This document shows positions 139 through 14,919 of a stretch of 15,238 nt of DNA, piece after piece. The stretch is taken from NCBI GenBank assembly GCA_964447985.1, contig CAYUVE010000036.1:1-15238 (forward strand), given 5' to 3'. A program made the position numbers and the translations under genes. Within the stretch, counting starts at the first letter, position 1, and the number at the start of each line of letters is the position of its first letter. The notes under the pieces were generated by a model. That model made no database searches, was not told where the DNA came from, and saw only the letters and a list, made by a program, of their open reading frames with translations. Source of the stretch: an uncultured Thiotrichales bacterium. GTDB lineage: Bacteria; Pseudomonadota; Gammaproteobacteria; GCA-2400775.

Positions 139-1425
139 GTGCTTGGATTGCTTGGTTTAGCTCTATTATTTGCTTTAATGGTTTGGGGGATATTAATGCT
201 CTGGGCCAGCTTGTTTAGAGCTATCGGTATTCATTTCTTTTACGATGTATTTATAGAGGGCTGGTTTTATTATCCGGTAATTGCGCTAGCGTATGGTTTT
301 GGGATAATAATATTTAGAAGACTTACGCATATTATCGATACTATTTCGCGCATACAACAGGCATTGATGAAATTCCTGTTAGTCTTGATAGTATTTGTGT
401 CTATCATCTTTTTAATTACGCTTCCCTTTACAGGTTTATCACCGCTCTGGGAAAGTGGTGGGAGCGCACTCATTTTATGGATGCAAGCATTAATATTCTT
501 CTTTGTTAACGCTGTTTACCAAAATGACCCGGAATCTAGGCCCTACAATCAATGGCTTCATAAATTTATTTTTATTGGAATAGCATTGTTGCCTGCATAC
601 AGTGCGATCAGTTTTTACGGGTTGAGCTTAAGAATTGATCAATACGGTTGGAGTGTAGATCGACTTTGGGCATTTCTAATTTGGTTTCTCTTAGCTTTGT
701 TTTCTATTGGCTACCTTTGGGGAATTATCAGGCTTAGGGAAGGTTGGCAAAAGCAACTAAGCAAGGTAAATGTGTCGGTAGGCTTATTGGTTTTGGTGAG
801 TATGTTATTGGTGAATTCACCGATACTGGATTTTCGAAAAATTACCGTGATAAGCCAGTTGAATTTGTTGCGAGAAGGAAAAATTAGCGAGGAAGAATTT
901 AGTATCTATTACTTCAGTCGTAATTTGTCTAGGCCGGGTCGAGAGGCGCTGGAGAAATTGAAAAATAATAAAGAGTTAGCCAACCCTCAATTGGCAGCTC
1001 GAATTACTAACTTACTTAATAGCGCTGACAGAAATAAAATTTTGTCGAAAGAAGAGTTTATCAGTGCGATTCATGTTTCTGAAGGTCGCGCACCTGGTTC
1101 TCTCATTGACGTTATTTACTCGGACCTTTCCGGCCTTAAAAAATGGTTTCTTAGGGGTGATGAAACTTACTATCTGATGCCTCTTGAGTTAAACGATGAT
1201 GAAGTTTTCGAATATCTTTTTGTTATTAAAGAGAGCCATGGTTCTCATGTAGAGCTTTATGTTGTAAACGAAGAATCATGGTCTAAATTAGATTTTCATA
1301 GGGATAATGCTTGGGTGTACGACGATAAAAAGTTTCTTGAGGCTGTTAAGTCAGGCGAATACAGCTTAGCTAAGCCAAAATGGCCTAAGATTATAGTAGG
1401 GAATGAAGAGCTACAAGCAAGATAA
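139..1425 (+). CDS. Hypothetical integral membrane protein: about 230 aa of multi-TM N-terminus plus about 200 aa of soluble C-terminal domain. GTG start at 139; an alternative ATG lies at 178.
   Basis: A 428-codon ORF. The N-terminal half is rich in hydrophobic helices (for example LLGLALLFALMVWGILMLWASL, FLLVLIVFVSIIFLITLPF, LIWFLLALFSIGYLWGII). The C-terminal half is charged and soluble. I recognise no family. Confidence 0.7.
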   Translation: MLGLLGLALLFALMVWGILMLWASLFRAIGIHFFYDVFIEGWFYYPVIALAYGFGIIIFRRLTHIIDTISRIQQALMKFLLVLIVFVSIIFLITLPFTGLSPLWESGGSALILWMQALIFFFVNAVYQNDPESRPYNQWLHKFIFIGIALLPAYSAISFYGLSLRIDQYGWSVDRLWAFLIWFLLALFSIGYLWGIIRLREGWQKQLSKVNVSVGLLVLVSMLLVNSPILDFRKITVISQLNLLREGKISEEEFSIYYFSRNLSRPGREALEKLKNNKELANPQLAARITNLLNSADRNKILSKEEFISAIHVSEGRAPGSLIDVIYSDLSGLKKWFLRGDETYYLMPLELNDDEVFEYLFVIKESHGSHVELYVVNEESWSKLDFHRDNAWVYDDKKFLEAVKSGEYSLAKPKWPKIIVGNEELQAR

Positions 1426-1469
1426 TGATGAAAAGCTATTTATGTAATGCTAGCAGGTAGGTTAAACGT

Positions 1470-1997
1470 ATGAAATTAACACCAGTTATGGAAAAATATG
1501 TTCTTCATTGGGGGGAAATGGGTACCCGATGGGGGGTGAATAGAACGGTATCTCAGATACACGCTTTGTTATTTTTAGCTTCGAACCCGTTGAATGCAGA
1601 GGAAATTTCGGAGACATTATCAGTTGCTCGATCCAACGTGAGCACGAGTATTAAAGAACTGCAATCTTGGGGGCTAGTAAAAACCGTGCATATTCTAGGT
1701 GATCGCCGTGATCACTTTGAAACTATGAGGGATCCATGGGAGTTATTCCATATCATTATGGAAGGCCGTAAACAGCGTGAGCTTGATCCAACTATGTCTT
1801 TGCTGCGAGAGTGTGTTCTGGATGCGGAAAGTGATAAAGAAACACCGGAAAAAGTAAAAAGCAGAATGAAAGATGTGCTTCAGTTTATGGAGACTCTAGA
1901 TACTTGGCATAGCCAGGTAAAAAGTTTGCCTAGACCGACTTTGATTAAACTAATCAAATTAGGCGCAAAGGTTCAAAAGTTTATAGGTGTGAAGTAA
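1470..1997 (+). CDS. GbsR/MarR-family winged-helix transcriptional regulator
   Basis: GbsR/OpcR-type signature: RTVSQIHALLFLASNPLNAEEISETLSVARSNVSTSIKELQSWGLVKTVHILGDRRDHFET. This follows the RT.G.LL.S..PLS.EEL...L..S...VS...R.LE.WG.V......GDRRD.Y pattern. The protein is 175 aa. An RBS-like AGGTAGG lies upstream. Confidence 0.8.
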   Translation: MKLTPVMEKYVLHWGEMGTRWGVNRTVSQIHALLFLASNPLNAEEISETLSVARSNVSTSIKELQSWGLVKTVHILGDRRDHFETMRDPWELFHIIMEGRKQRELDPTMSLLRECVLDAESDKETPEKVKSRMKDVLQFMETLDTWHSQVKSLPRPTLIKLIKLGAKVQKFIGVK

Positions 1998-2013
1998 GGC
2001 TTTTTTTTGCTTT

Positions 2014-2039
2014 TTAATTTCTGTTTATACAGAAATTAA
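2014..2039. promoter_or_regulatory. Perfect 11-bp/4-nt/11-bp AT-rich palindrome, a candidate operator for the adjacent GbsR/MarR-type regulator
   Basis: The sequence ttaatttctgt-ttat-acagaaattaa is an exact inverted repeat. It lies 20 bp upstream of the RBS of the 2059 operon and just downstream of the regulator's stop. No U-tract follows it on either strand, so it is not a classic intrinsic terminator. Confidence 0.45.
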
Positions 2040-2058
2040 TGAATAAAAAGGAAAGTGT

Positions 2059-3348
2059 ATGAATATATTTCTAACAGGTGGAACAGGTTTCGTTGGTGGT
2101 TATATTTTAAATGCGCTCAGCAACGCTGGACATAACGTAATAGCCGCAGTGAGAAACACTGAGTCAGCTCATAATCGCTGGCCAAATATCACCCTAGTAG
2201 AAGCAGACTTTGCTAGAGATCATCAAGTAGAAGATTGGTTAGAAAAATTGGATGGTGTTGATGTCGTTATCAATGCTGTTGGAATTATTAGTGAAACTAA
2301 ATTCCAGAGCTTTGATGCCTTGCATGCGAAAGCACCCAGTGCGCTATTTCATGCAGCAGAAAAAGCCAATGTTAAACGTATAGTGCAAATCTCTGCTCTG
2401 GGGGTAGATGAACAATCATTCGTGGAATATCAGTTGAGTAAAAAAGTCGCAGATGATTGCTTGAGATCGTTAAATATAGATTGGGTAATACTTCAACCTT
2501 CTTTTATCTATGGCGTGGGTTCCACTAGTCTCAATTTCTTTAATGCCTTCTCCGCTCAGGGAGTTATTCCACTAATAGGGGGAGGGGGACAAAGAATTCA
2601 ACCGATTTATATTGATGACCTTGTACAAGTTGTTTTGGCTGCGATTGATGGTGACGCGCTTAAGAATAAAACGATACCCGTGGTAGGGCCACATGCTATG
2701 GATATTAGGTCTATATATAAAAAGCTGCACGCGTTTTTGGGTTTAGGTAAAACAAGGTTCATATCAATTCCTTACGAATTAGCACTTTTTGCATCGCATT
2801 TAGGCGTGGGGAAGCTTTTGGGGGCACCTCAATTTACTTCTGACGCTATAAAAATGCTTCGTGCAGGTAATACAAGCAATGTTGTTCGAATTGCAGGTTT
2901 GGATAATTACTCGCCTATTAGCTTTGATCAAGGGTTAGCTAAGATACCAGCACAGTCATCAGACCGATGGCATGCAGGATTATTTTTTTTAAAACCCTTA
3001 CTGCGGTATACAATTGGTTTCTTATGGATATTTACCGCTATTGTTTCAGCGTTTTTATTTCCTGCAGAAAGAAGTTATGCCTTACTCGCTAAAGTAGGCG
3101 TTAGCGAATATTGGGCACCATTTTTACTTTATAGTGCTGCCTCATTGAACTTTATTCTGGGTTTGGCAACATTATTTGCCTATCGAGTCTCGCTATTTGG
3201 TTTACTGCAAATAGCTGTGATAGTAATTTACACCACCTTTATTTCAATTGCGTTGACTGAGTATTGGTATCACCCCTTCGGCCCTGTCAGCAAAAACATA
3301 CCTATAGTTGTTGCTATCATGATCATGATGGTTCTAGAGAAAAAGTAA
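2059..3348 (+). CDS. NAD(P)-binding SDR/NmrA-like (epimerase/dehydratase-fold) protein fused to a C-terminal membrane domain of about 130 aa (4 predicted TM, possibly DoxX-like)
   Basis: N-terminal Rossmann motif MNIFLTGGTGFVGGYIL followed by ...AAVRN... as in atypical SDRs. Residues about 300-429 are hydrophobic helices (LLRYTIGFLWIFTAIVSAFLF, FLLYSAASLNFILGLATLFAY, LLQIAVIVIYTTFISIAL, IPIVVAIMIMMVL). RBS AAGGA upstream. Confidence 0.8.
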   Translation: MNIFLTGGTGFVGGYILNALSNAGHNVIAAVRNTESAHNRWPNITLVEADFARDHQVEDWLEKLDGVDVVINAVGIISETKFQSFDALHAKAPSALFHAAEKANVKRIVQISALGVDEQSFVEYQLSKKVADDCLRSLNIDWVILQPSFIYGVGSTSLNFFNAFSAQGVIPLIGGGGQRIQPIYIDDLVQVVLAAIDGDALKNKTIPVVGPHAMDIRSIYKKLHAFLGLGKTRFISIPYELALFASHLGVGKLLGAPQFTSDAIKMLRAGNTSNVVRIAGLDNYSPISFDQGLAKIPAQSSDRWHAGLFFLKPLLRYTIGFLWIFTAIVSAFLFPAERSYALLAKVGVSEYWAPFLLYSAASLNFILGLATLFAYRVSLFGLLQIAVIVIYTTFISIALTEYWYHPFGPVSKNIPIVVAIMIMMVLEKK

Positions 3349-3815
3349 TGGATTACGAAATAGTGAAATGGCTCCATATTTTAAGTGCCACCTTACTTTT
3401 CGGTACCGGTCTAGGGAGTGCTTTTTATAAGTATATGGGTGATAGATCTCAAGATATTTCAACGATTGCTTACACCAATAAGCATGTTGTGTTAGCTGAT
3501 TGTGTGTTCACTACACCTACAATCGTCATTCAACCAATTACTGGGCTGATTCTTGTTTCGATAATAGGGGGTTCTATTACCGATGTATGGGTAATACTTT
3601 CCATAGTTTTTTACACATTAGCGGGACTATGTTGGTTACCTGTTGTGGTTTTACAAATAAGAATGTCAAAAGCAGCTGAGGCTGCACGGTTAAATAATTC
3701 AGAATTACCAGATAGCTATTGGAGATACACGAATCAATGGTTTTGGCTAGGCATACCCGCTTTTTTGTCAATGATGCTAGTGTTTTTATTTATGGTATTA
3801 AAACCAGGGGCGTAA
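3348..3815 (+). CDS. DUF2269-family integral membrane protein
   Basis: The ATG overlaps the upstream TAA (TAATG), indicating translational coupling. The sequence MDYEIVKWLHILSATLLFGTGLGSAFY..., with four hydrophobic helices, is typical of DUF2269. The ORF track's 3264 start overlaps the upstream gene and is unlikely. Confidence 0.7.
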   Translation: MDYEIVKWLHILSATLLFGTGLGSAFYKYMGDRSQDISTIAYTNKHVVLADCVFTTPTIVIQPITGLILVSIIGGSITDVWVILSIVFYTLAGLCWLPVVVLQIRMSKAAEAARLNNSELPDSYWRYTNQWFWLGIPAFLSMMLVFLFMVLKPGA

Positions 3816-3819
3816 TACG

Positions 3820-4254
3820 ATGATAATCAAAGAAGATATAGCACCATATGTTTCCAAAGGCGATAAAGTCATACTGTTTGATGGGGTGTGCAAACTATGT
3901 AGTGCATGGAGTCGTTTTATCATCAAGTACGATACGGCCCATATATTTAGACTCGCTTCTGTGCAATCAAGAGAAGGGCAGTCGATTCTCAAACACTTTG
4001 ATCTTCCGACTGACTACTTCGAAACGATGCTCTATGTAGAAGAATGTGTTGCTTATGAGAAAAGCGATGCGCTATTCAAAGTATTGATACAGTTGCCAAG
4101 GCCGCTATGCTGGCTAGCTTGCGGCGCTATTTTTCCCAAGCCCGCACGCAATTGGGTCTATGACCGTATCGCCTTGAATCGCTATCAGCTATTTGGCAAG
4201 TATCAGCAATGTTTGCTTCCTCACCCTGATCACGAGACACGCTTTTTATCATGA
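3820..4254 (+). CDS. DCC-family (DUF393) thiol-disulfide oxidoreductase
   Basis: Hallmark motif ILFDGVCKLCSAWSRFI (FDGxCxLC) near the N-terminus. The protein is 144 aa. There is a 4-nt gap after the upstream gene. Confidence 0.8.
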   Translation: MIIKEDIAPYVSKGDKVILFDGVCKLCSAWSRFIIKYDTAHIFRLASVQSREGQSILKHFDLPTDYFETMLYVEECVAYEKSDALFKVLIQLPRPLCWLACGAIFPKPARNWVYDRIALNRYQLFGKYQQCLLPHPDHETRFLS

Positions 4255-4646
4255 CAGGTTCAGGATATGAAAAGATAAACTTAATGTCGAGAACGACATT
4301 AGCTTTCGTGTTCTTCTACCACGGATTGGTTTCAAAAATCATTATTATGGACGATTCAGAGCGTGAAATTATTGAAGCCCATGCGTTTTTATCTTCTTCC
4401 GATGCTATTTTATTGGCTTCTGGTGTGGCGGAAATTATCTTGGCTACACTGTTGGTCATTTTTAGGAACTCATTACTCACGATATATTTAGTAATAGTTA
4501 TATTGTTACTATTGTTGATCGATATCGCTCTATTTACGCCACATATCCTTTTTCAAGCGTTTAGCCCAGTAACTTTAAATATGGTGTGTTTAGTCCTGTG
4601 CTGGGTGGTGATTATCACTCATCAAAACAAAGGGGAATTACCATGA
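4251..4646 (+). CDS. DoxX-like family small membrane protein. An alternative start lies at ATG 4284.
   Basis: ATGA overlap with the upstream stop. The AFVFFYHGLVSKI motif and 3-4 TM helices match the DoxX-like architecture. Confidence 0.7.
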   Translation: MTGSGYEKINLMSRTTLAFVFFYHGLVSKIIIMDDSEREIIEAHAFLSSSDAILLASGVAEIILATLLVIFRNSLLTIYLVIVILLLLLIDIALFTPHILFQAFSPVTLNMVCLVLCWVVIITHQNKGELP

Positions 4647-6196
4647 GTGTTGATAAGAAATACGATGTTATCGTCGTTGGCGGTGGGTTGTCTGGTATGG
4701 CAACGGCGATGTTGCTGCAAAATCAGGGGAACAAGACGTTGCTTCTAGAAGCACATTCTCGCCTTGGCGGTTGTGCGGGGTTTTATCGTCGAGATAAGTT
4801 CAGTTTTGATATTGGTGCAACTACCTTGGTCGATTTTAATAAAGACGGTGTTGGCGGCAATTTTTTACAAAAAGTGGGTTTGCAACCAATAAAGGATGAA
4901 TTACTGCCTGGTTATATGGCGTGGTTGCCTGATCGTCGTGTGGAAGTCGCTTCTGACAATACTCGTTGGCAGCAAGAACGTTTAAAAATGTTGGGAGATT
5001 CTAATAGCCATAGAAGATTCTGGAATACGCTCGACGAAATAGCTGATACCTACTGGCAAGCTTCCAGGTCGGGATTAAAAATGCCCATGCGTTCATTCTC
5101 TGATATGTATCGAAATTGGAAGGCGCTAGACTTCAAAGGGTTGATGATGTCGCCATATTTGTTTTCATCAATGGGTGATTTACTTAGGAAAAATGGTTTG
5201 CAAAATGACCGTCCGCTAGTAGGTTTGTTATCAATGATGATAGAAGATACCGTTCATGCCAAAGTCGATTCCGCGCCCCTTATAAATTCGGCATTGGGCG
5301 TCACAATTCGAGGTGCAGGTTTGGCCAGACCAGTAGGAGGGATGCGCGGTTTCTGGCGTCAGCTTGCTAAACGTTATGTCGAGATTGGTGGCACAATTAA
5401 ACTGAATGCGTACGTTAATCAGATTAGTGGAAAATTAGGCAGTTTCTCAGTTAGAGCAAAGAAAAACAAGTTTCAAGCTTTACAAGTTGTTAGTGCATTA
5501 CCTATTCAAAATACTGCAAAAATTGCCTCACATTGCATAGGTAAGCAAGTGCGACAGTTTATCGAGCGTGATAATAAAGCCTTAGGTGGCGGTATAGTGG
5601 TATGCATCGGTGTTCCTGAGAACCAAGTGATAAATTCACCAAGCGGTCATCGTCACCATCAGCTGCTGCAGTCTTATGAGCGAGATCTGGGTAATGGAAA
5701 TAATATGTTTATTTCAATTTCTGCGGAGGAGGATACATTGAGTGCGCCTGAAGGGTTTCGCTCAGTAATGATTTCAACTCATTGTGAACTAGATGAGTGG
5801 AAATTTCTTAATCATTACGAATATCGAGCTGCGAAGAAAAGTATTACTAAAAAACTTATTACTTACGCTCGTCGCGTATATCCGGCCTTAGGTGAGACAT
5901 ACAAAGTGCTCGAGACGGGTACTCCACGTACTTATAAGTTGTTTACTGATCGTTTTGGTGGGTCAATTGGTGGTGCACGTTTGTCGATGCAAAATGCAAA
6001 TCAAAGAGCAGTACCTTACGACTTAGCCACTCCAGGACTATGGATGGTGGGCGATACGACATGGCCAGGACTTGGTACGGTCGCGTGTGTCATAGGTGCG
6101 AGCCACGTAAGTGAAGGCGTGATGGAGTTATTTCGCGATACTAAACTGCAAGTACGTTCTCATCGTAAAGGTTTAGTGCCGAGTTTACAGTTATGA
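4643..6196 (+). CDS. NAD(P)/FAD-dependent oxidoreductase of the phytoene-desaturase (CrtI/amine-oxidase) family
   Basis: Start at ATG 4643, preceded by AAAGGGG and overlapping the upstream stop (ATGA). The N-terminal dinucleotide-binding motif YDVIVVGGGLSGMATAMLL...LLLEAHSRLGGCAG matches the CrtI/amine-oxidase family. The C-terminal end ...GLWMVGDTTWPGLGTVACVIGA is also typical of this family. The protein is 517 aa. Confidence 0.8.
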   Translation: MSVDKKYDVIVVGGGLSGMATAMLLQNQGNKTLLLEAHSRLGGCAGFYRRDKFSFDIGATTLVDFNKDGVGGNFLQKVGLQPIKDELLPGYMAWLPDRRVEVASDNTRWQQERLKMLGDSNSHRRFWNTLDEIADTYWQASRSGLKMPMRSFSDMYRNWKALDFKGLMMSPYLFSSMGDLLRKNGLQNDRPLVGLLSMMIEDTVHAKVDSAPLINSALGVTIRGAGLARPVGGMRGFWRQLAKRYVEIGGTIKLNAYVNQISGKLGSFSVRAKKNKFQALQVVSALPIQNTAKIASHCIGKQVRQFIERDNKALGGGIVVCIGVPENQVINSPSGHRHHQLLQSYERDLGNGNNMFISISAEEDTLSAPEGFRSVMISTHCELDEWKFLNHYEYRAAKKSITKKLITYARRVYPALGETYKVLETGTPRTYKLFTDRFGGSIGGARLSMQNANQRAVPYDLATPGLWMVGDTTWPGLGTVACVIGASHVSEGVMELFRDTKLQVRSHRKGLVPSLQL

Positions 6197-6612
6197 CATA
6201 TCAAGAAAAAATATTATCTACGGTTTTCTTATCTGCCGCGATATACAACGTGGTATGGGGAGTCTTAATTATTTTCTACCCGAACTTGATATTCAAAGTC
6301 TTTGATATCGAACCGCTTAACTATCCGTTCTTAATGAGTGGTATCGGGATGTTTGTTGCCGTTTATGGATATGGATATTGGGTTGTGTCCAGAGATTTAT
6401 ACTGCTATCCGCAGCTTGTTGTTATAGGTTTGCTCGGAAAAACACTAGGGCCTATAGGATGGGGCTTTACTGTATTAAATGGCGATATTCCGGGGAGAAC
6501 ATTATGGGTCAATGTATTTAATGACTTAATTTGGCTACCATTCTTTGTTTATTATTTGTTTTGGTATCAAAAATATAAACAAAGAAATGATTTCAGCATC
6601 GACACCGCTTAA
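6193..6612 (+). CDS. Small hydrophobic membrane protein (139 aa), translationally coupled to the FAD oxidoreductase
   Basis: ATGA overlap with the upstream stop. Predicted TM helices: LSTVFLSAAIYNVVWGVLIIF, FLMSGIGMFVAVYGYGYWVV, LIWLPFFVYYLFWY. Confidence 0.65.
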   Translation: MTYQEKILSTVFLSAAIYNVVWGVLIIFYPNLIFKVFDIEPLNYPFLMSGIGMFVAVYGYGYWVVSRDLYCYPQLVVIGLLGKTLGPIGWGFTVLNGDIPGRTLWVNVFNDLIWLPFFVYYLFWYQKYKQRNDFSIDTA

Positions 6613-6700
6613 GTGAAATATAAGATTAGCGTTACAAAATAGAAATAGTGACAGCATAAGTATTCGCTTCTTTATAAAAACGTAGGGGTAATATTTCATT

Positions 6701-7711
6701 ATGAATAGTAATGAAAAAGATATTGTTAAAAAAGATTCTAGGTTGGAGTTTTCTGCTTGGATACCTCTTTTCGCTGGAGCCACTTATGGGATATTAATGC
6801 GAATCTTATTTGAGATGTCAAGCTTCTCAGATAAAGATTTAGAGGTGATGACTTTTGCATTTATCATTATCGTTCCTATTGCTGTGGGTGTTGTAACGGT
6901 TGTTTTTGCAGAAGCAAAAAAAAGTCATGGCTTTTTGTATTTTATCTTTGCGCCTTGGGCCTCCATTACTATATTTGTCCTTGGAACGGCTATCTCATTA
7001 CTTGAAGGTCTGATTTGTATTGCTATGGCATTTCCCCTTTTTCTTGTCCTCGGGTCATTTGGAGGCTTAGTCGCAGGTATAGTTACTCGGTATACGATTC
7101 ATAGAAAGTCCATTGTGACATGTGTTGGGGTGTTACCTATTTTGGTTGGGTTCTACGAAGCAGGAGAACCGATGTCAAATATCTATGCTGAAATCAGTAG
7201 AGATATTTATATTGAGGCGTCTCCGAATACAGTTTGGCACCAAATAAATTATCCAACTAACATTAAACCAAAAGAACTTAAAAACGGATTTGCTTATAAG
7301 ATAGGTGTCCCATATCCGATAGAGGCCAGAACGCTAGAGGAGCGTGTTGGTGGTATGCGAAACCTTATTTGGCAACGAGGGATCACCTTTCGGGAAGAGA
7401 TTACAGCTTGGGAGGAAAACAGATATATCGCATGGAATTATATTTTTGATAAAAATTCGTTTCCTCCTGGTTCAATGGATGATCATGTGGTGATTGGGGG
7501 TAAGTACTTTGACTTGAGAGAGACGTCTTATACATTAATACCAACGGGTAAAGGCACATTACTAGTACTCAAAGTTGGCTACAGAGTGAGTACTAGCTTT
7601 AATTGGTATTCTCAATTTTGGGGAGACTTTCTAATTGCTGATACAGCTGAGACTATACTGGAATTCTACAGGAATAGATCAGAAGCTAGCATAAGAAATT
7701 TATCTAAATAA
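6701..7711 (+). CDS. Membrane-anchored SRPBCC (Bet v1/START-like) domain protein
   Basis: About 130 aa of N-terminal TM helices, then a C-terminal region with an SRPBCC-like layout: IYAEISRDIYIEASPNTVWHQINYP...GGMRNLIWQRGITFREEITAWEENRYIAWNY. AGGGG lies about 12 nt upstream of the ATG. Confidence 0.65.
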   Translation: MNSNEKDIVKKDSRLEFSAWIPLFAGATYGILMRILFEMSSFSDKDLEVMTFAFIIIVPIAVGVVTVVFAEAKKSHGFLYFIFAPWASITIFVLGTAISLLEGLICIAMAFPLFLVLGSFGGLVAGIVTRYTIHRKSIVTCVGVLPILVGFYEAGEPMSNIYAEISRDIYIEASPNTVWHQINYPTNIKPKELKNGFAYKIGVPYPIEARTLEERVGGMRNLIWQRGITFREEITAWEENRYIAWNYIFDKNSFPPGSMDDHVVIGGKYFDLRETSYTLIPTGKGTLLVLKVGYRVSTSFNWYSQFWGDFLIADTAETILEFYRNRSEASIRNLSK

Positions 7712-7762: not shown

Positions 7763-7790
7763 TTGACTTTTATTTTTTTAAGCGTAAGAT
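7763..7790 (+). promoter_or_regulatory. Sigma70-type promoter: -35 TTGACT (7763-7768), 16-bp spacer, -10 TAAGAT (7785-7790). An A/T-rich UP-like tract lies upstream.
   Basis: The -35 hexamer is perfect and the -10 matches at 4 of 6 positions, just downstream of the stop of the 6701 gene. The predicted TSS near 7797 would initiate the long non-coding region. Confidence 0.45.
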
Positions 7791-7796
7791 GCGCGC

Positions 7797-8714
7797 CACT
7801 ATGAATAAATTGAACTCACAAATGAATGTTCTTGCTAGCGCACTTGGCGGTTATCGCCTTTATGCGTGCGGCGCGAGCACGCGTGTTCAAAACCTCGAAC
7901 AGGTTTTGTGGCACATATCATTTGATGGTGAGAGTCAAAACATAACGTAGTTCTCTTTTAGGAGGACTGCGTGGCAGTCTTCCTAAGTCTTTATAAAACT
8001 AGGCTTTAGACGACTGTCAGTCTCTGAGGTGCTAGTGATTCTGGGCTGCTTTGTCGTCGAGCCTACTTCTTACTCTCAGAGCAGAAAGCGTCCTACAAAA
8101 CGTGGACATGTTGCGATAGCGGGTTCTTTGGGTCCCGTCTGGCACAAGGCACGCTGTGTTGTTGTGTACCTCATGTTTGCGAGTTGTATCGACACCATAG
8201 GTAGCTCATGGGCAGAGCAGCGAACTGATAATTCGTCGGTAGTGGGTTCGAGTCCCACCCTAGAACAGCCTGCAAAGCTGTTACGCGTAAGCGTACTAAG
8301 TAAAAAACTAGGTGAGAGGCTTCTCGGTTAATGTGTTTGATGGTTAAACGAATATGAAATGGAATTCGCGCTAACAACGGATGGTTTGGCCTGTGTGATA
8401 GACAACGAAATGAAGAACGAACTGTGGCGCTATCGTAGATAGGGAGGCGAAGAGACATAGCTGTGTAGTTAGGCAGCAGTGTCTCGCGATAGACGGGTAA
8501 GCGACTACTCATTTTGACGGTATCACCCGCTAAGACAACGTGGGAAGCCTCTTCATCTTTTTGAAGAGTGACCAATGGTTATATGAAAGAAATGAATGAT
8601 GAAATGAAAGGAGATTAGCAATGAAAACGTAGATGTGTCGGTGACGGCAGCCCGTAAGGTGCACCGAGTGAGAAATGCCGGGCTTATGTTGTGAAATAAA
8701 TAAAGGAAACAATC
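7797..8714 (+). ncRNA. Roughly 900-nt non-coding, hairpin-rich leader or structured RNA preceding the SPFH-RtcB genes. Extent and boundaries are uncertain.
   Basis: No credible ORF: only short, mutually overlapping ORFs on both strands, without RBS context. Stems include 7864-7882 (gcgtgc/gcacgc), 7888-7908 (caaaacct/aggttttg), 7958-7986 (13 bp with one GU, 3-nt loop, sequestering AGGAGG), 8263-8281, a tacgc-GUAA-gcgta tetraloop hairpin, and 8549-8568. The tRNA-like element lies at 8195-8266. Confidence 0.45.
8195..8266 (+). ncRNA. tRNA-like element (pseudo-tRNA, Y-RNA-like or other tRNA mimic) with a defective acceptor stem
   Basis: Folded by hand. U8-A9 ta; D-arm gctc-atgggca-gagc; anticodon stem gcgaa/ttcgt with 7-nt loop ctgataa (U33, anticodon GAU, A37); variable loop cggta; T-arm gtggg-ttcgagt-cccac with a canonical TTCGAGT loop. 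The putative acceptor pairs ccatagg with cctagaa in only 4 of 7 positions. Discriminator is c. No CCA is encoded. Confidence 0.5.
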
Positions 8715-9839
8715 ATGTTAAAAATGAAAAGAGTCGTGATTGCACAGCACGAGCGCGGGTTATACCTAGAAGATAGAAGTATTGTCCGTGTGTTGTCGCC
8801 AGGTGTTTATTGGAGCCTGAGCACAAGAGTGCACATCGTGGTCTTAGATACACGTAATGTGGAGGTAATCCACGATGCAGTATCGGCCTTGGTTGAAAGC
8901 AATCGAGAATTGGCCGAACAATATTTCCAGGTATTAGATCTTGGTGAATATGAAATCGGTCTGTTGTATCAGAGGAACACATTACAAAGGGTGTTAGCGC
9001 CAGGTGAACGTTATGTTTTCTGGAGAGAGAATAAAGATTTGCGAATCGATATTGTCGACATCAAAGAAGACTACCGTTTAGCTAAAGATCTGGCAAAGGT
9101 CTTAGTGAGACGTTCTATTCGTAATGCATCAGAAGCTGTTTACCCAGTAGAAGTGGCATCAGGTCATATTGGTCTGCTGTGGGTGGATGGTGAGCTGATT
9201 GATAGCTTAAAGCCTGGTGTTTACGCCTACTGGCGTTATAACCGTAACATTAAGGTTGAGCATGTTGATCTACGTTTGCAGGCGATTGATGTCTCAGGTC
9301 AGGAAATTCTGACTAAAGATAAAGTCAGCTTACGGATTAACTTAACGGCAGTTTATAAAGTTGTCGATGCGGTAACGGCACGATTAGCGGTAAATGTGTA
9401 TTCAGACCATGTGTATTTGCAATTACAACATGGTTTACGCGAAGCCGTAGCCACACGAACGCTAGATACGTTACTGGCAGATAAGGAGTCTTTAAATGGT
9501 GAGTTGTATCAAACCGTAAAAGCTAACTTAGCTGAGTATGGTATTAAAGTGGATCGTGTTGGTGTTAAGGACATTATCTTGCCTGGTGATATGAAAGATA
9601 TTTTGAACCAGGTTGTGGCGACTGAAAAGGCCGCCCAGGCTAATGTTATCCGTCGGCGTGAAGAAACCGCTGCAACAAGATCGTTGCTGAATACTGCAAA
9701 ACTGATGGATGAACATCCAACATTGATGCGGTTAAAGGAGATTGAAGCGTTAGAAAAAGTCACTGAGAAGGTAGATCGTATTACCGTCTACGATGGCTTA
9801 GATGGTTTGCTTCGAGATACCGTTAAGCTGCAGGTCTAG
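8715..9839 (+). CDS. SPFH/Band-7 (stomatin/prohibitin/flotillin-like) domain protein, no TM segment, with a triplicated N-terminal beta-motif
   Basis: RBS AAGGA lies 7 nt upstream. The SPFH core is recognisable: ...KPGVYAYWRYNRNIKVEHVDLRLQAIDVSGQEILTKDKVSLRINLTAVYKVVD...GIKVDRVGVKDIILPGDMKDILNQVVATEKAAQANVIRRREETAATRSLLNTAK. The N-terminal 150 aa contain two extra copies of the GLLx..L..VL.PG.Y..W motif. The C-terminus is helical and charged. Confidence 0.8.
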   Translation: MLKMKRVVIAQHERGLYLEDRSIVRVLSPGVYWSLSTRVHIVVLDTRNVEVIHDAVSALVESNRELAEQYFQVLDLGEYEIGLLYQRNTLQRVLAPGERYVFWRENKDLRIDIVDIKEDYRLAKDLAKVLVRRSIRNASEAVYPVEVASGHIGLLWVDGELIDSLKPGVYAYWRYNRNIKVEHVDLRLQAIDVSGQEILTKDKVSLRINLTAVYKVVDAVTARLAVNVYSDHVYLQLQHGLREAVATRTLDTLLADKESLNGELYQTVKANLAEYGIKVDRVGVKDIILPGDMKDILNQVVATEKAAQANVIRRREETAATRSLLNTAKLMDEHPTLMRLKEIEALEKVTEKVDRITVYDGLDGLLRDTVKLQV

Positions 9840-9862
9840 TAGTAAGTAATAAGGAAGAGGGC

Positions 9863-9893
9863 CCCAACCCCAGAAGTTGCCAATGGGGTTGGG
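9863..9893 (+). other. Intergenic perfect 10-bp stem / 11-nt loop hairpin between the SPFH gene and rtcB
   Basis: cccaacccca-gaagttgccaa-tggggttggg. No U-tract follows. It could act as an RNA processing or stability element, a partial terminator, or a protein-binding site. Confidence 0.4.
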
Positions 9894-9940
9894 ATAATGG
9901 GATTGAATAGAATTTAAGTAGGAAGTACACAGGAAGAAAA

Positions 9941-11137
9941 ATGCCAATTAAACAGGTGATTAAAAAAGGCAAAGTACCCGTCAAAATCTACACCAATGAT
10001 ATTGACCCAGGTGCTTACGAGCAGTTAGCGAATATGGCGCAGATGCCTTTTATTCATTCGCATATTGCTGCCATGCCTGACGTGCATAAAGGAATCGGTG
10101 CCACCGTGGGTTCAGTGATACCAACAAAGGGCGCTATTATTCCTGCTGCCGTGGGGGTAGATATTGGCTGCGGTATGAACGCAGTGCGTCTGAGCCTAAG
10201 TGCCAATGAATTGCCGGATAACTTGAAAGGCCTACGTAGCGCTATTGAGCGCGATGTGCCTGTCGGTTTTGCTATGCATAAAACGGATGCCGTGCCAGAT
10301 TCAACTGTCAGGGCTTTATCTCCAGGGCTAGAGACTATTTGGGGTAAACACCCAAAGTTAAAGCCGAAAAAGAAAAAGCCTTTTCATAGTTGGGTGAGAC
10401 AGTTAGCGACACTAGGTGGCGGTAACCATTTTATCGAGTTATGTCTTGATGAAAATAATGACGTCTGGGTAATGTTGCACTCGGGCAGTCGTGGCGTAGG
10501 TAACGCCATTGGTCAGTACTTTATTGAACTGGCGAGACGAGACATGGAAAAGATTCAAAAGAATCTGCCAGATCGTGACTTGGCTTACTTTACCGAAGGT
10601 ACCGATCATTTTGATGATTATTTACAAGCCGTTAGTTGGGCGCAGGATTATGCTATGACTAATAGGCGTGAAATGATGCGTATCCTTATCAAGGTGTTAC
10701 AGCACAAACTGCCTGCATTTAAAGTGACAAAAGAAGCCATTAACTGTCACCACAACTATGTAGACGAAGAAGTGCACTATGGCGAATCGGTCTTTGTCAC
10801 CCGTAAAGGTGCTATCAGAGCCAGCGAAGGCGAGTACGGGATTATTCCCGGCAGTATGGGTGCAAAATCTTTTATCGTCAAAGGTAAAGGTAACCCAAGT
10901 TCGTTTTGTTCCTGCTCACATGGTGCTGGTAGGGTAATGAGCCGTACTGCAGCGAAAAAGCAGTTCACCAGTGTTGATCTGGAAGCCCAGACCAAAGGTG
11001 TCGAATGTAGAAAGGATAAATCAGTGATTGACGAAATCCCTGCTGCATATAAAGACATCGATACCGTCATGGATAACCAAAAAGACTTGGTGGAAGTAGT
11101 GCATACCTTGAAACAGGTTGTCTGTGTCAAAGGCTAG
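9941..11137 (+). CDS. rtcB: RtcB-family RNA 3'-phosphate/2',3'-cyclic-phosphate to 5'-OH ligase (short form, 398 aa)
   Basis: RBS AGGAAG upstream. All RtcB active-site motifs are present: MPDVHKGIGATVGSV, VGVDIGCGM (metal-ligand Cys), GGGNHFIELCLD, MLHSGSRGVG, CHHNYVDEE, and SFCSCSHGAGRVMSR (the His that becomes guanylylated). Confidence 0.85.
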   Translation: MPIKQVIKKGKVPVKIYTNDIDPGAYEQLANMAQMPFIHSHIAAMPDVHKGIGATVGSVIPTKGAIIPAAVGVDIGCGMNAVRLSLSANELPDNLKGLRSAIERDVPVGFAMHKTDAVPDSTVRALSPGLETIWGKHPKLKPKKKKPFHSWVRQLATLGGGNHFIELCLDENNDVWVMLHSGSRGVGNAIGQYFIELARRDMEKIQKNLPDRDLAYFTEGTDHFDDYLQAVSWAQDYAMTNRREMMRILIKVLQHKLPAFKVTKEAINCHHNYVDEEVHYGESVFVTRKGAIRASEGEYGIIPGSMGAKSFIVKGKGNPSSFCSCSHGAGRVMSRTAAKKQFTSVDLEAQTKGVECRKDKSVIDEIPAAYKDIDTVMDNQKDLVEVVHTLKQVVCVKG

Positions 11138-11165
11138 AACCAAGCGCGTGTAATGCGTTTGGTTC
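11137..11165 (+). other. Hairpin immediately after the rtcB stop: 10-bp stem with one GU and a 9-nt loop
   Basis: gaaccaagcg-cgtgtaatg-cgtttggttc begins at the last base of the TAG. It is followed by accgttaaaac, a weak U-tract, so it is at best a leaky terminator or a stabilising 3' structure. Confidence 0.35.
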
Positions 11166-11192
11166 ACCGTTAAAACAAATAGGAGAAAGTAA

Positions 11193-11318
11193 TGCTTAAT
11201 CGAAATAAATATCAAGCAACACCGGGTGGCGTGGTGATATACGCCACCGATTTATTCGACTCGATTTATATAAGATTTTTAAAAGGTTCTAACTATGGAA
11301 ACAAAGCTATTAAATGAA
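11193..11318 (+). CDS. Possible 41-aa small ORF (MLNRNKYQATPGGVVIYATDLFDSIYIRFLKGSNYGNKAIK) overlapping the start of the next gene
   Basis: A strong SD AGGAG lies 6 nt upstream of the ATG. The ORF's stop overlaps the 11295 gene by 24 nt, which could allow coupling. Against it, the ORF contains an 8-bp hairpin (11225-11248, ggtggcgt/acgccacc). It could therefore be a leader peptide, a regulatory structure, or spurious. Confidence 0.25.
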
Positions 11319-12221
11319 GTCATAGCGTGTTTGCCAAAAGGTAAAACACATTATCGCTATTACAAAAATGCCTATGCTGCCAAATTATTGAATATGGCGA
11401 TGCGTCACGACGCGCCTATAAAATCAGTACGTCGGTCGCGCTATGCTAAGTTGTTGAATAATGTATTACTAAAGGGTGTCGTCGCCAATAGTGGCGATGG
11501 CGTTGTGCGTAAGCAGCAACTCGACAGCTTGTGGCAGGAACCTTCGTTACCTTTCATATTGACAGCGGCAAAGTGGCGCTATTGTTCACGTGGCTGGTCG
11601 CAGGTGTCAAGACCAGGCGATAATCTTGTGTTACAGCTTAATATGTCGACACAGCATGATCAGCTTTATGAGCGTTATGTTCACAATTATGATTTTAATC
11701 CATACACATGTCATCCGGTGTTATCAAAGCGGAGAAGATCGATAGCTAGAGAGACTTTAGCCTGGTCACGTATAGATTTTGATTTATCTTCTGACGAAGC
11801 GTTAATCGAAGAGATACAAAGTGATGCTATCAGAGAAATGTTGTGGTTAAAAAATTACACTATGAAACGTGATGACAGTCGTAGTCGCAATGATAAAACC
11901 TATCTAGAATGGTTTGAACCGTATTTAAAGTGTTGGCAAGAAGCGATGTTAATGGCCACGGTAGAATTTATTCGCTACGAACTTGGGATCAGTAGAATTT
12001 ATATTCATACTGATACGTCGGGTTGGAAAGTAAAGAAAATGCGAAAGAATTGGCTGCCACCAAAGTCTTTGTATTCTGATTTGCCAAGGAAATTTGCCTT
12101 TAAGCAAACCTGGAATGCGCCAGAGTTTTTACTGGGTACGCGCGGATATAAAAATCTTATCCGCAAGCAGCCGGATATTGATTTTTATCTTTTAGACTTT
12201 ACTCAGTCCATTGCAGCGTAG
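11295..12221 (+). CDS. Hypothetical protein (308 aa) with no recognisable domain, encoded downstream of rtcB
   Basis: Clean ORF in operon orientation. Composition is basic and aromatic-rich (many R/K/W/Y). I could identify no HEPN, PIN, GGQ, P-loop or Rossmann motif by eye. Confidence 0.7.
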   Translation: METKLLNEVIACLPKGKTHYRYYKNAYAAKLLNMAMRHDAPIKSVRRSRYAKLLNNVLLKGVVANSGDGVVRKQQLDSLWQEPSLPFILTAAKWRYCSRGWSQVSRPGDNLVLQLNMSTQHDQLYERYVHNYDFNPYTCHPVLSKRRRSIARETLAWSRIDFDLSSDEALIEEIQSDAIREMLWLKNYTMKRDDSRSRNDKTYLEWFEPYLKCWQEAMLMATVEFIRYELGISRIYIHTDTSGWKVKKMRKNWLPPKSLYSDLPRKFAFKQTWNAPEFLLGTRGYKNLIRKQPDIDFYLLDFTQSIAA

Positions 12222-12235
12222 AAGGGATAATAGCA

Positions 12236-12408
12236 TGCCAAATACAACTACAATCAGAAACCACGTGGCGCGTTCACCATTACTTCGAAAAGGCGGTGCA
12301 CATACTAAAAGTACTTCATCTGATCGCCAAAGCGAGAAACGTGAAGTAGAAGAAATAAAAGAAAACTGGCGCGAAGAATTGGAGTTTGAACGCAAGTTAA
12401 AGAGTTAA
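12236..12408 (+). CDS. Small basic/charged protein (57 aa): MPNTTTIRNHVARSPLLRKGGAHTKSTSSDRQSEKREVEEIKENWREELEFERKLKS
   Basis: ATG with AGGGA about 8 nt upstream, 15 nt after the 11295 gene's stop, and in the same orientation. The N-terminal half is basic and the C-terminal half is an acidic/basic helix. The competing 67-aa minus-strand ORF (12192-12395) has poorer context. Confidence 0.4.
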
Positions 12409-12444: not shown

Positions 12445-13056
12445 TCATATAGTCATAGGCTTATTATCTTTATGCTGCCACATATACATAGCGAGATATG
12501 AGCGGTAGGGCGAGAACTTTTCAGCTGTTGTGCTGATATCTTTATCATCACCTATTAGTTTTTGAAAGGTTTTGATGACAGCTACATCTTTATCGGGCCA
12601 TATGTCTGGGTCACAAAAGTAAAAAAGATTGACCATGTCAGCTGTCCATGGACCGACTCCCCAAATTGATGTTAGGGTTTTCGCACGTTGTTTCTGATCT
12701 AGCTTTTCCAAATTTTCTGCGGTGATATGTCCTGTATGAAAACTATGAGCAATAGCAGACAGTGTTTTGCACTTCGCGGCAGATAACCCGCAAGTGCGCA
12801 GGTCTTCGGTCTTACTAGAATGAATAAACTCTAGTAATGATTTTCCGTTTGATACATCTAAGAGTCTTTGCCAAATGGTACTAGCCGCTTTGGTTGAGAG
12901 TTGCTGGCCTGCTACTGAACGACAAAGTAATTCTGGTAGTGGAATATGTTGTCGAGAAGTGATTTTGACAACGCCTATTTGTTTGATGGAATGATGTAAT
13001 GGCCCACTGATATTCTTAGAGAGTTTTAAAAATTGTTGATGAATAGAACGAGACAT
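12445..13056 (-). CDS. HhH-GPD superfamily DNA glycosylase (AlkA-like DNA-3-methyladenine glycosylase II)
   Basis: Helix-hairpin-helix/GPD motif ...LTSIWGVGPWTADMVNLFYF.DPDIWP.D.... The 203-aa length is typical of single-domain AlkA/Mag-type glycosylases. Confidence 0.75.
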   Translation of the reverse strand: MSRSIHQQFLKLSKNISGPLHHSIKQIGVVKITSRQHIPLPELLCRSVAGQQLSTKAASTIWQRLLDVSNGKSLLEFIHSSKTEDLRTCGLSAAKCKTLSAIAHSFHTGHITAENLEKLDQKQRAKTLTSIWGVGPWTADMVNLFYFCDPDIWPDKDVAVIKTFQKLIGDDKDISTTAEKFSPYRSYLAMYMWQHKDNKPMTI

Positions 13057-13086
13057 TAATTTTTGTAGTGCTTCTGACTAGGGGGA

Positions 13087-14919
13087 CTAGTTTAAGGAGT
13101 CATGGTCCTCTTTACGTATACCAAATATTTTCATTCGATAGTTGAGTGTTGAGGCTTTAATGCCCAATAATTCAGCAGCGCCATCTTTTCCCCAGACTTG
13201 CCAATTAGCACTGCGAAGTGCAGCAATAATGTTATTTTTTTCCATTTCGCGGATCTCAGCGTCCGTGAGGTAATCTGTATTTTTTGTTTTCGACTGAGAT
13301 ACTAGGGTTTCCTGAGGTGCGAGTTTAGGGAGGACTAAATCGAGCCGAGCGCGGCCGCCTTTACTTAAGATGGCAGCACGCTCAATGGTATTCTTGAGTT
13401 CTCTTATATTACCTGGCCAGTCATGTTGTTTAAGGTGATTAACTTGTTGTTTTGAGAGTTTTAATGACTCTCGACCGAGTTGTGTACAACTACGGTTAAG
13501 AAAATGTTGTGCAATGGGTGCAATATCATCGGTGCGTTCACGTAGTGGCGGTACGTTAATAGGGAAGACACTTAAACGGTAAAATAGGTCTTGGCGAAAA
13601 AGGCCTTTCTTAATCTGTTCTTCAAGATTTAAATTCGTTGCAGCAATAATGCGAACGTCCACTTTAATGGTTTTATCATCGCCTACGCGTTCAAATTCAT
13701 ATTCTTGTAATACACGTAATAATTTGCTTTGCAGATCAAGCGGAATTTCGCCAATTTCATCGAGAAATAATGTACCGCCATCGGCAAGTTGCATACGGCC
13801 TATTCGGTCTCGATGTGCACCGGTAAAGGCGCCTTTTACATGACCAAAAAATTCGCTTTCAAATAAGTCTTTCGGGATAGCGGTGCAGTTGACCTTAACT
13901 AAGGGCTTACTGCTACGATCGCTCTTAGCATGAATAGCACGTGCAATCATTTCTTTACCTACACCCGATTCGCCTAGTAATAAGACGTTGGCTTGTGTTG
14001 TGGCTACGGCATCAATCTGTGCCATGGTGCGCTTTAAGGCATCGCTATCGCCAATAATTTCTCCAAAATCAGAAGTCACATTTATTTCATCGCGTAGGTA
14101 ATCGCGTTCGAGTTCAAGTTGCTGTTTGAGGTGGTTAATTTCCCGGTAGGAAGCTTCGCGTTGTTTCTCGATTTCTTTACGTTCGGAGATATCACGAAAA
14201 ACGACAACGGCGCCAGCGAGTTTTCCGTTTTGACGAATAGGTGTGCTGGTGTATTCCACGGGTATGGGTGAGCCGTTGGCATGCCAGAATACTTCATCAT
14301 CGACATGATGTACTTCGCCGTCCTTGAGTGCGGCATAAACGGGGCATTCGTCTCGTGGATAGATTGAACCATCTACCCGGGTATGGTGATGAACATCATG
14401 AGCGGGTTTACCGATGACGTCTTCGAGTTTCCAACCAACAATTTCAGTAGACGCGGCATTGGCAAAGATGGTCATGCCATTAGCGTCTAAGCCGTAAATT
14501 CCCTCACCAGCGGCGTTAAGAATGGACGCATGTTCTGTTTCTAAGCGCTCGAGCTTGGTTAAGGCTTCGTCGAACTGATCATTATGGTTTATGTGTAGTG
14601 CTAACCATGGTTTGTCATCGTCGTCTCTCGGCAGTGACCAGGCAGACATCAAGCCATGCACGACACCGCTTTTTCCATTGATGGAGACAGGAAGAGCTTG
14701 TAGCGGTTTTTCCTCGGTCCTTGCTTGCTGCAGTGTTTCCACCAACATCGAGTCTTCTTCAATATCAAAGAGTCTATCTAACGGTAAGACAGTGTCGTCG
14801 CTATTGGCCATGCCGAGATGCTGTGCCCAGCCCTGACTGATATGCCGACAGACGAGTTGTGCATCGAGTAAGCCGAGAAGAGTCGGTGCTTCATTCAGTA
14901 GCTTTGTTGTTGTGAGCAT
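13087..14919 (-). CDS. Sigma54-dependent transcriptional activator (bacterial enhancer-binding protein) with N-terminal PAS-type sensor domains and a C-terminal Fis-type HTH
   Basis: AAA+ sigma54-interaction core: LLLGESGVGKEMIARAIH (Walker A), ESEFFGHVKGAFTGA (GAFTGA motif), GGTLFLDEIGE (Walker B), WPGNIRELKN. The N-terminus contains PAS-like repeats (GIYGLDANGMTIFANAAS...). The C-terminal HTH is AAELLGIKASTLNYRMKIFGI. Confidence 0.85.
   Translation of the reverse strand: MLTTTKLLNEAPTLLGLLDAQLVCRHISQGWAQHLGMANSDDTVLPLDRLFDIEEDSMLVETLQQARTEEKPLQALPVSINGKSGVVHGLMSAWSLPRDDDDKPWLALHINHNDQFDEALTKLERLETEHASILNAAGEGIYGLDANGMTIFANAASTEIVGWKLEDVIGKPAHDVHHHTRVDGSIYPRDECPVYAALKDGEVHHVDDEVFWHANGSPIPVEYTSTPIRQNGKLAGAVVVFRDISERKEIEKQREASYREINHLKQQLELERDYLRDEINVTSDFGEIIGDSDALKRTMAQIDAVATTQANVLLLGESGVGKEMIARAIHAKSDRSSKPLVKVNCTAIPKDLFESEFFGHVKGAFTGAHRDRIGRMQLADGGTLFLDEIGEIPLDLQSKLLRVLQEYEFERVGDDKTIKVDVRIIAATNLNLEEQIKKGLFRQDLFYRLSVFPINVPPLRERTDDIAPIAQHFLNRSCTQLGRESLKLSKQQVNHLKQHDWPGNIRELKNTIERAAILSKGGRARLDLVLPKLAPQETLVSQSKTKNTDYLTDAEIREMEKNNIIAALRSANWQVWGKDGAAELLGIKASTLNYRMKIFGIRKEDHDSLN

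Follow-up and report, generated by a model that had tools for sequence, protein, structure and literature searches.

The window analysed here, a stretch of 15,238 nucleotides (nt) on contig CAYUVE010000036.1 of an uncultured Thiotrichales bacterium, has the character of a marine gammaproteobacterial chromosome (GC content about 0.40). At positions 7763–12408 it contains a block with all of its features on the forward strand: a promoter, a structured region with a tRNA-like element, and genes for an SPFH/Band-7 protein, an RtcB RNA ligase, a protein of 308 amino acids (aa; p308) and a small basic protein (named p65 here, 57 aa from its likely start). Comparison with related loci makes it probable that this block is a stress-gated RNA-repair operon of the class RtcB/Band-7 (SPFH)/b7a-tRNA (b7a for ‘band 7-associated’), in which the SPFH protein probably has a large structured RNA for its partner. 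The preliminary description, made from the DNA letters alone, had seen the SPFH protein and the tRNA-like RNA in the place held elsewhere by Ro60 and Y RNA within an RtcB-centred module, and the conserved linkage bears this out. Two neighbourhood surveys were used, one of 80 loci centred on p308 and one of 80 metagenomic loci centred on the SPFH protein, with denominators that vary by feature. A same-strand tRNA or tRNA-like gene was found 200–700 nt upstream of the SPFH gene in 53 of the 60 SPFH-centred loci with enough upstream sequence, and RtcB was encoded immediately upstream of p308 in 46/72 p308-centred loci. Within 6 kb of the SPFH gene, RtcB was present in 10/25 SPFH-centred loci.

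The claim that such a system was previously undescribed has to be withdrawn. That certain bacteria encode RtcB beside a Band-7 protein and a putative non-coding RNA was noted by Wang et al. (2018, bioRxiv 10.1101/312249), in whose account the RtcB/Band-7/‘band 7-associated tRNA’ association is credited to a prediction by Burroughs and Aravind in 2016, the RNA is seen as functionally parallel or redundant to YrlA of the Rsr/YrlA system, and the pair of Band-7 protein and RNA is quoted as a proposed cofactor or scaffold for ligation. Because this prediction exists, the core finding is a member of a known, purely computational class, with which it shares an intact RtcB, the adjoining Band-7/SPFH protein and a tRNA-like gene conserved beside the Band-7 gene. 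In the class as Wang et al. describe it in the accessible text, only the tRNA-like gene is mentioned, whereas here this gene is one domain of an RNA of about 600 nt and is accompanied by a leader open reading frame (ORF) with a terminator and by a mini-ORF, as well as by genes for two proteins, one with a GNAT fold and one basic and of 57 aa. As far as the accessible literature goes, novelty lies in an RNA of several domains that Rfam lacks, in the putative attenuator and the mini-ORF, in two partner proteins (the GNAT-fold protein and the small one) and in the physical clustering with long tRNA arrays; the 2016 paper may mention some of them. Its abstract (Burroughs and Aravind) reportedly proposes that SPFH/Band-7 modules, together with ‘a novel tRNA-like molecule’, are possible scaffolding cofactors. 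Although RtcB occurs universally, its substrates and cofactors in bacteria are still poorly defined, and the Band-7/b7a-tRNA branch has been a prediction since 2016. This prediction now has concrete targets, namely an RNA with defined helices, two candidate translation-coupled switches and a trio of RtcB, GNAT-fold protein and small protein.

The tRNA-like element and the RNA around it

The tRNA-like element of the preliminary description was recovered by ARAGORN at 8195–8266 on the forward strand as Ile/GAT with the anticodon loop CUGAUAA, and it is of the b7a-tRNA type. The Rfam tRNA model scored it at 48.7 bits (gathering threshold 29), matching at model positions 4–67 only. A cloverleaf with D, anticodon and T arms is present as in a canonical tRNA, but the 7-bp acceptor stem and the CCA end are not shared: by direct reading, the acceptor stem of the window element has 4 pairs and CCA is absent. 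For comparison, a set of 78 sequences was used, consisting of the window and 77 loci that each carry an SPFH gene and a tRNA-like element. A 7-pair acceptor stem was found in 12/78 SPFH-proximal elements as compared to 226/275 other tRNAs in the same loci, and CCA in 36/78 as compared to 255/275. On these counts, the acceptor-end defect is a family-wide trait and not random decay. The anticodons of the tRNA-like elements are diverse (CAU, GAU, UAG, UGU, GAA and others), CAU and GAU being the commonest, and the gap between the element and the SPFH gene has a median of 378 nt over the 78 sequences.

Judged by the covariation of its flanks, the tRNA-like element is one part of a conserved structured RNA of about 600 nt with three further covarying domains, here called A, B and C. 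Their modular conservation emerged when MAFFT was used to align the intergenic region with its counterparts in Arenicella-type loci, and compensatory changes were assessed in 49 sequences for domain A and 27 for domain B, in both cases from distant lineages. The preliminary description had taken some 900 nt at the start of the block as non-coding and hairpin-rich; structure and conservation were upheld, but the region holds a 49-codon leader ORF (7801–7950) and a mini-ORF (8608–8632) and is thus not entirely non-coding. When the window and 23 related loci were scanned against Rfam 15 (gathering thresholds and E ≤ 10), only tRNA plus noise was returned, and domains A, B and C stayed unmatched. 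Neither tmRNA, GOLLD, ROOL, OLE, raiA and Drum nor other Rfam 15 families matched in these loci, and Y RNA (YrlA/YrlB) gave no match in the window even at E ≤ 10, so that of the known RNAs considered beforehand only tRNA was found.

Domain A (8085–8197, forward strand) was predicted by RNAalifold with 21 bp and consists of an outer 6-bp stem around a T-loop-like GGUUC hairpin and a 10-bp hairpin CUGGYGC...GYGURUACC. A covariance model (R1) built from 12 sequences scored 69.8 bits in the window; among 78 sources it found 49 matches, each of them on the forward strand and nearly all ending within a few nt of the tRNA-like element; on the E. coli and Citrobacter loci described below, the model found no significant match. 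In the alignment, which was fitted to the model, 91.9% of the cells were paired as compared to 32–52% in slid controls, and 256 double-change cells were observed as compared to 84 in shuffles. At the base of the second hairpin (columns 60/116 of alignment A7), a G-U wobble is kept in 48/49 sequences and might for this reason be a recognition element.

Domain B (8265–8568, forward strand) was delimited with alignments A4 and A8, RNAalifold and pair counts. It comprises P0, an anticodon-arm-like hairpin of 5 bp with a 7-nt loop (8265–8281), P1, a GNRA hairpin (8284–8293), the long-range helices P2 (8315–8325/8542–8552) and P3 (8380–8397/8524–8539), and a trailing 7-bp hairpin, CUCUUCA/UGAAGAG (8549–8568). 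In the Arenicella-type set A4, 85–88% of the cells were paired as compared to 34–42% in slid controls, and 21 pairs showed compensatory changes, a value reached by none of 500 shuffles. For the independent set A8, RNAalifold predicted P2 and P3 unaided, 92.4% of the cells were paired as compared to 35–48% after sliding, and 26 pairs were compensatory. Moreover, an alignment-free test, in which ungapped helices were scored between early and late windows, gave better cognate than non-cognate helices (p = 6e-10), the recovered helices differing in sequence while keeping their complementarity. A naive column-pair helix search on A4 yielded mostly G-U noise. In the Arenicella-type set, both the long-range P2 and a local hairpin, P2a, which uses the early strand of P2, carry compensatory changes; P2, the choice of RNAalifold in A8, is preferred here as the principal helix, P2a being a possible second conformer. 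The trailing hairpin overlaps the 3' strand of P2, so that the two are mutually exclusive and may form a further switch point near the translation start region of the SPFH gene.

Several features of domain B are reminiscent of tRNA. With the sequence C-U-N-N-N-A-A/C, the loop of P0 has anticodon-loop geometry, and its ‘anticodon’ varies (GCA, GAA, UUA, AUC and others). In distant loci, P0 is followed by the GNRA hairpin and then by a perfect T-arm, GYGGUUCGAAUCCRC, an order which resembles a class II tRNA without its 5' third. In locus L010 (positions 2–1592), the tRNA-like element and domain B stand directly before RtcB and an SPFH gene is missing; the RNA can thus accompany RtcB without SPFH.

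Downstream of domain B, a Shine-Dalgarno sequence (AAGGAG) and a mini-ORF of three codons, ATG AAA ACG TAG (M-K-T-stop), occupy 8608–8632 on the forward strand, followed at 8638–8683 by domain C, a pseudoknot with an inner GNRA hairpin. Its helices are UCGG 8638–8641/CCGA 8664–8667 and ACGGC 8644–8648/GCCGG 8677–8681, the outer of which was predicted by RNAalifold from alignment A9; 96.7% of the cells were paired as compared to 24–40% in slid controls, and 6/12 pairs were compensatory. Domain C is confined to a subset of loci. In all 10 loci found with domain C beside a mini-ORF, the window included, a Shine-Dalgarno sequence and an ORF of 3–4 codons lie 3–8 nt upstream of the pseudoknot, the peptides being MKT, MKC, MRKT, MLKT, MKHT, MRHN, MNAF and MTF. 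The second or third codon is often the lysine codon AAA.

An unlikely alternative, which is the main rival of an RNA acting as partner of the SPFH protein, is that the structured region serves purely as a cis-regulatory leader of the riboswitch, T-box or attenuator kind, controlling SPFH and RtcB and perhaps sensing the state of tRNA or of the ribosome, and that it is neither trans-acting nor part of a ribonucleoprotein (RNP). The location of domains B and C, which end 25–150 nt before the SPFH ribosome-binding site, would be in line with this, as would the Shine-Dalgarno sequence and mini-ORF just before pseudoknot C, the separate covariation of P2a, which makes a switch possible, and the direct succession of tRNA-like element, domain B and RtcB in L010. 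However, with its roughly 600 nt, its 10 or more helices and a nearly complete cloverleaf inside, the region is far larger than known bacterial leaders. Moreover, the RNA travels with the SPFH gene whatever lies downstream (53/60 loci as compared to 10/25 for RtcB), and it often stands behind a long tRNA array as if it were another RNA gene.

Promoter, leader ORF and terminator-like hairpins

The block begins, as the preliminary description had proposed, with a sigma70-type promoter, TTGACT-16 nt-TAAGAT, located by pattern scan at 7763–7790 on the forward strand. The same layout of -35 and -10 elements, followed by ATGAA 8–12 nt downstream, was present in the window and 16 related loci, six of which lack SPFH and the tRNA-like element. 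In the window, the promoter is followed on the same strand by a leader ORF of 49 codons (7801–7950; MNKLNSQMN...ESQNIT*), whose TAG stop lies 6 nt before a hairpin, H1. There is no space for a Shine-Dalgarno sequence between promoter and ATG, and the leader mRNA is for this reason probably leaderless. In 16/16 loci (the window and 15 others), the ORF, 30–67 codons long, runs without interruption to a point no more than about 25 nt before H1, the chance of which in shuffled composition was 0.01–0.24 per locus. The peptides are poorly conserved, with weak amino-acid constraint, except for N-termini rich in K, N, Y, Q and H, a pattern which fits a regulatory ORF.

Hairpin H1 (7957–7987, forward strand; terminator scan and RNAfold) has 14 bp and a U-rich tail, is terminator-like and is kept in 16/16 loci. 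In 12/16 loci it is followed by a canonical intrinsic terminator, H2, with a CCCCGG...CCGGGG stem and a run of 7–8 U; in the window, direct reading identified a degenerate counterpart at 8004–8029 on the forward strand (CUUUAGA/UCUGAGG, no U-run). A TAG stop is found in 12/16 leader ORFs (7948–7950 in the window), usually inside the motif cGUAG(U/C)C, which mimics the 3' arm of H1. This stop-codon segment can pair with the H1 5' arm, GGCU(G/A)C (L003 and L071 show a U-A/U-G change), and RNAfold gave the pairing of the two as the minimum free energy alternative in L001, L003 and L071. The same leader stands directly before RtcB in the SPFH-less loci L001, L004, L009, L011, L012 and L014.

Taken together, leader ORF and H1/H2 look like a translation-coupled leader-peptide attenuator. 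Attenuators of the trp, his and pheST type share with this candidate the short ORF right after the promoter, the alternative hairpins and the intrinsic terminator before the structural genes; in contrast to these, the mRNA here is apparently leaderless, a run of one regulatory codon is missing and the stop codon lies inside the competing segment.

Encoded proteins and their neighbourhoods

The SPFH/Band-7 protein (8715–9839, forward strand) has 374 aa, belongs to the ‘slipin family’ and appears to be soluble. The absence of a membrane anchor and the triplicated beta-motif noted beforehand were both confirmed: no transmembrane segment was detected in the protein, the maximum Kyte-Doolittle hydropathy being 1.17, three successive units of five beta-strands were predicted in an AlphaFold2 model, and the motif G-L-x3-G-x4-L-x-PG-x-Y-x2-W can be read three times in the sequence. 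The order is two extra N-terminal five-strand units, the SPFH core and a long C-terminal helix, and the Band_7 match covers aa 146–317. A similar order of beta-repeat units, SPFH-like domain and long helix, associated with a small RNA, is known from the vault of major vault protein (MVP) and vault RNA, a possible parallel in architecture.

RtcB (9941–11137, forward strand; 398 aa) matched PF01139 at 9e-132. Alignment to P. horikoshii RtcB showed all catalytic motifs (DIGCG, GNHF, HSGSRG, HHN and SHGAGR) to be present and the metal-binding and GMP-histidine motifs to be conserved, so that the enzyme is intact as judged by its sequence, in agreement with the preliminary description. In NCBIfam, it reached the cut-off of neither the E. 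coli-type nor the PrfH-type model (136 bits for TIGR03073 as compared to a cut-off of 271.8). The gap of 157 nt between RtcB and p308 contains a GC-rich hairpin of 9 bp, whose T-rich tail is weak (11225–11248), and in relatives this gap measures from 8 to about 350 nt.

The RtcB-linked p308 (11295–12221, forward strand; 308 aa) had been regarded as devoid of recognisable domains. Indeed, it had no match in Pfam, NCBIfam or PADLOC, but it has a GNAT (acyl-CoA N-acyltransferase-like) fold, with a segment carrying the invariant residues H238, G243 and K247 at the expected position of the pyrophosphate loop and with the canonical Q/RxxGxG/A motif absent. The small basic protein p65 (12235–12408, forward strand; motif MP...RNxVARSPLLRKGG[AV]H) exists as proposed, but comparison with its homologues, which share the invariant core RN..A..P.LRKGG.H, puts its start most likely at ATG 12235 (57 aa) and not at TTG 12211. 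A profile search against the PDB and Pfam scans of 25 homologues revealed no relative of p65. The idea that p65 is an ArfA-like rescue factor was rejected, since these searches and an hhalign comparison with an ArfA sequence were all empty.

Homologues of p308 number more than 566 and are present in 352 species genomes. In the p308-centred loci, p65 was found downstream of p308 in 44/78 and an SPFH gene in 20/55; as judged by this synteny, RtcB, the GNAT-fold p308 and p65 are a conserved trio. SPFH homologues amount to thousands, at least 587 of them in metagenome contigs. These counts of co-occurrence indicate two recombining modules, one of tRNA-like RNA and SPFH, the other of leader/attenuator, RtcB, p308 and p65. 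In the SPFH-centred loci, five or more tRNAs upstream of the SPFH gene were found in 11/43. In many related loci, domain A, the tRNA-like element and SPFH are immediately preceded by arrays of 15–23 apparently canonical tRNA genes (L021 3008–5037, L048 1452–4367, L056 56–2947, L082 1120–3590, L086 266–2638, L125 148–2875 and L159 1293–4808). These arrays resemble the horizontally transferred ‘L-arrays’ of cyanobacteria, which are inducible by translational stress.

An enterobacterial variant was found in E. coli STEC639 (L161, 5469–7922) and Citrobacter freundii (L162, 3960–7913), in which a slipin gene with 42% identity is followed by a gene with a nucleotidyltransferase domain, without RtcB. 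A divergent rtcR upstream of the slipin gene is present in Citrobacter freundii only and not in E. coli STEC639. In the gap of about 450 nt of this variant lie a sigma54-like promoter and a single T-arm hairpin; a full tRNA-like element is missing, Rfam recognising a T-arm fragment only. In P. aeruginosa PA14, the SPFH gene PaFlo8 is located inside the rtcR-rtcA-rtcB locus (PMC13086221).

Among known systems, Rsr(Ro60)-Y RNA (YrlA/YrlB)-RtcBA of Salmonella shares the RtcB operon, the structured non-coding RNA with a tRNA-like module and a ring- or cage-forming RNA-binding scaffold protein. It differs in that TROVE/Ro60, RtcA, RtcR and an Rfam Y RNA match are lacking here and in that a sigma70 promoter with a leader ORF takes the place of sigma54 and RtcR. 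Unlike rtcBA-rtcR operons, the block has neither the RtcA cyclase nor the CARF-sigma54 activator RtcR, and unlike the RtcB2-PrfH rescue pair it has no PrfH, its RtcB lying below the ‘release_rtcB’ cut-off. Domain searches of the whole window found none of RtcA, RtcR/CARF, TROVE, PrfH and archease among its ORFs, as the preliminary description had stated. Long tRNA arrays are horizontally spread and, in Anabaena, are induced together with rtcB by translational stress (PMC8421152), and the TrcR regulon of Anabaena comprises rtcB, the slipin gene alr0740, GNAT genes and a tRNA operon, which are derepressed together in a trcR mutant (PMC10272220). Long tRNA arrays, RtcB, slipin and GNAT-family proteins are common to both systems at the level of families. 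The Anabaena genes are dispersed and TrcR-repressed, whereas here they are physically clustered.

The association with tRNA arrays bears on a further explanation, which we hold to be very unlikely: SPFH and the tRNA-like RNA might be a decoy, sponge or defence-type sensor for tRNA-targeting nucleases (anticodon nucleases, VapC or colicins), serving toxin capture with RtcB as an occasional add-on. The wide variation of anticodons among the tRNA-like elements, the mimicry of an anticodon arm by P0, the absence of RtcB from most SPFH loci and the frequent location beside long tRNA arrays, for which a sponge role has been proposed in the literature on the Anabaena arrays (PMC8421152), are all consistent with it. 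However, PADLOC found no match for SPFH, RtcB, p308 or p65, and a search of IMG/VR viral contigs for relatives of SPFH or p308, which was pattern-based and could miss distant ones, revealed no phage-borne copies, while linkage to RtcB or RtcR recurs in distant lineages. The suggestion of a defence-related system is therefore not upheld, and a phage origin was set aside on the same pattern-based search. The reading of the tRNA-like element as a tRNA gene in decay, or as what is left of an integration site, in 900 nt of junk or pseudogene DNA, as its shortened acceptor stem without CCA and the differing genomic contexts of the module might suggest, has next to no likelihood and is refuted by covariation and synteny, namely by compensatory changes in the flanks in 49 (domain A) and 27 (domain B) sequences, by the fixed position relative to SPFH (median 378 nt) and by the family-wide nature of the acceptor defect. 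Given this covariation and linkage, none of the three findings that the preliminary description had named as speaking against the module was made: the region covaries and is no pseudogene, SPFH and RtcB are neighbours in other genomes as well, and the element is no remnant of integration.

Proposed function and surrounding genes

For the probable RNA-repair operon of the RtcB/Band-7/b7a-tRNA class, we infer a mechanism that combines a repair scaffold with stress-gated attenuation. A ribosome reaching the UAG stop of the leader ORF would mask the stop-codon segment, the 5' arm of H1 would pair with the 3' arm, and transcription would end at H1/H2. If the ribosome stalled earlier, with tRNAs cut or scarce, the stop-codon segment would pair with the 5' arm of H1 and the polymerase would read through; which of the two pairing states gives read-through is here inferred. 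RtcB would then reseal breaks with 2',3'-cyclic-phosphate and 5'-OH ends that ribotoxins or stress nucleases leave in tRNA or rRNA. An SPFH oligomer on the large tRNA-like RNA might act as scaffold, substrate mimic or decoy, in parallel to the role proposed for Ro60 and Y RNA next to RtcB, and the GNAT-fold protein and the basic peptide could be accessory factors of RtcB on the repaired tRNA, on aminoacyl-tRNA or on the ribosome.

Several observations weigh against this explanation. RtcB accompanies only about 40% of the SPFH loci and p308 only 2/25, from which it follows that SPFH and the RNA must have a function independent of this RtcB. As it borders directly on the ribosome-binding site of the SPFH gene, the RNA could be a leader acting in cis and not a component of an RNP. 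The leader peptide is barely constrained, and its A-rich start could merely serve leaderless initiation. Furthermore, H2 of the window is degenerate and the tail of H1 is U-rich rather than a U-run, so that attenuation in the window may be weak or lost. Finally, b7a-tRNA is described as experimentally unvalidated in the account of Wang et al. (2018, bioRxiv 10.1101/312249).

A more far-reaching version, to which we give a rather small chance, is that the SPFH protein, as a ‘mini-MVP’ of two extra beta units, SPFH core and a helix resembling a cap, oligomerises around the RNA of about 600 nt to give a bacterial vault-like RNP, which would capture broken tRNAs or tRNA-targeting toxins and hand substrates to RtcB, its production being gated by the leader peptide and the mini-ORF as two translation-based sensors of tRNA integrity. 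In such a scheme, the Lys, Asn, Tyr, Gln and His codons of the leader peptide would correspond to tRNA families that known anticodon nucleases attack, and the 3–4 codons of the mini-ORF, usually with a Lys codon, would form the second sensor. If true, this would amount to a new class of large non-coding RNA and a new cellular route to sensing tRNA damage.

As concerns the RNA-repair operon itself, the logic of the candidate switches, leader ORF with terminator and mini-ORF with pseudoknot, is testable with reporters, and culturable relatives exist in E. coli STEC639, Citrobacter freundii and P. aeruginosa (PaFlo8, rtc locus). In addition, tRNA arrays, RtcB, slipin and GNAT proteins, which translational stress induces together in Anabaena, find a physical link in the block and its relatives.

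Convergent on the operon, 12445–14919 on the reverse strand carries an HhH-GPD glycosylase-like gene and a gene for a sigma54 activator of PAS-AAA+-HTH architecture (13087–14919, reverse strand). The latter has a PAS domain and not CARF and is hence no RtcR. Neither gene was found beside the module in related loci, and because they are not conserved with it, they were not counted as its parts. The genes at 139–7711 are unrelated to the module and have housekeeping or redox character (MarR, NAD-binding/DoxX, DUF2269, DCC1-like and FAD oxidoreductase). The closest relatives of the window genes are found in Arenicella and in metagenome-assembled genomes of Arenicellales.

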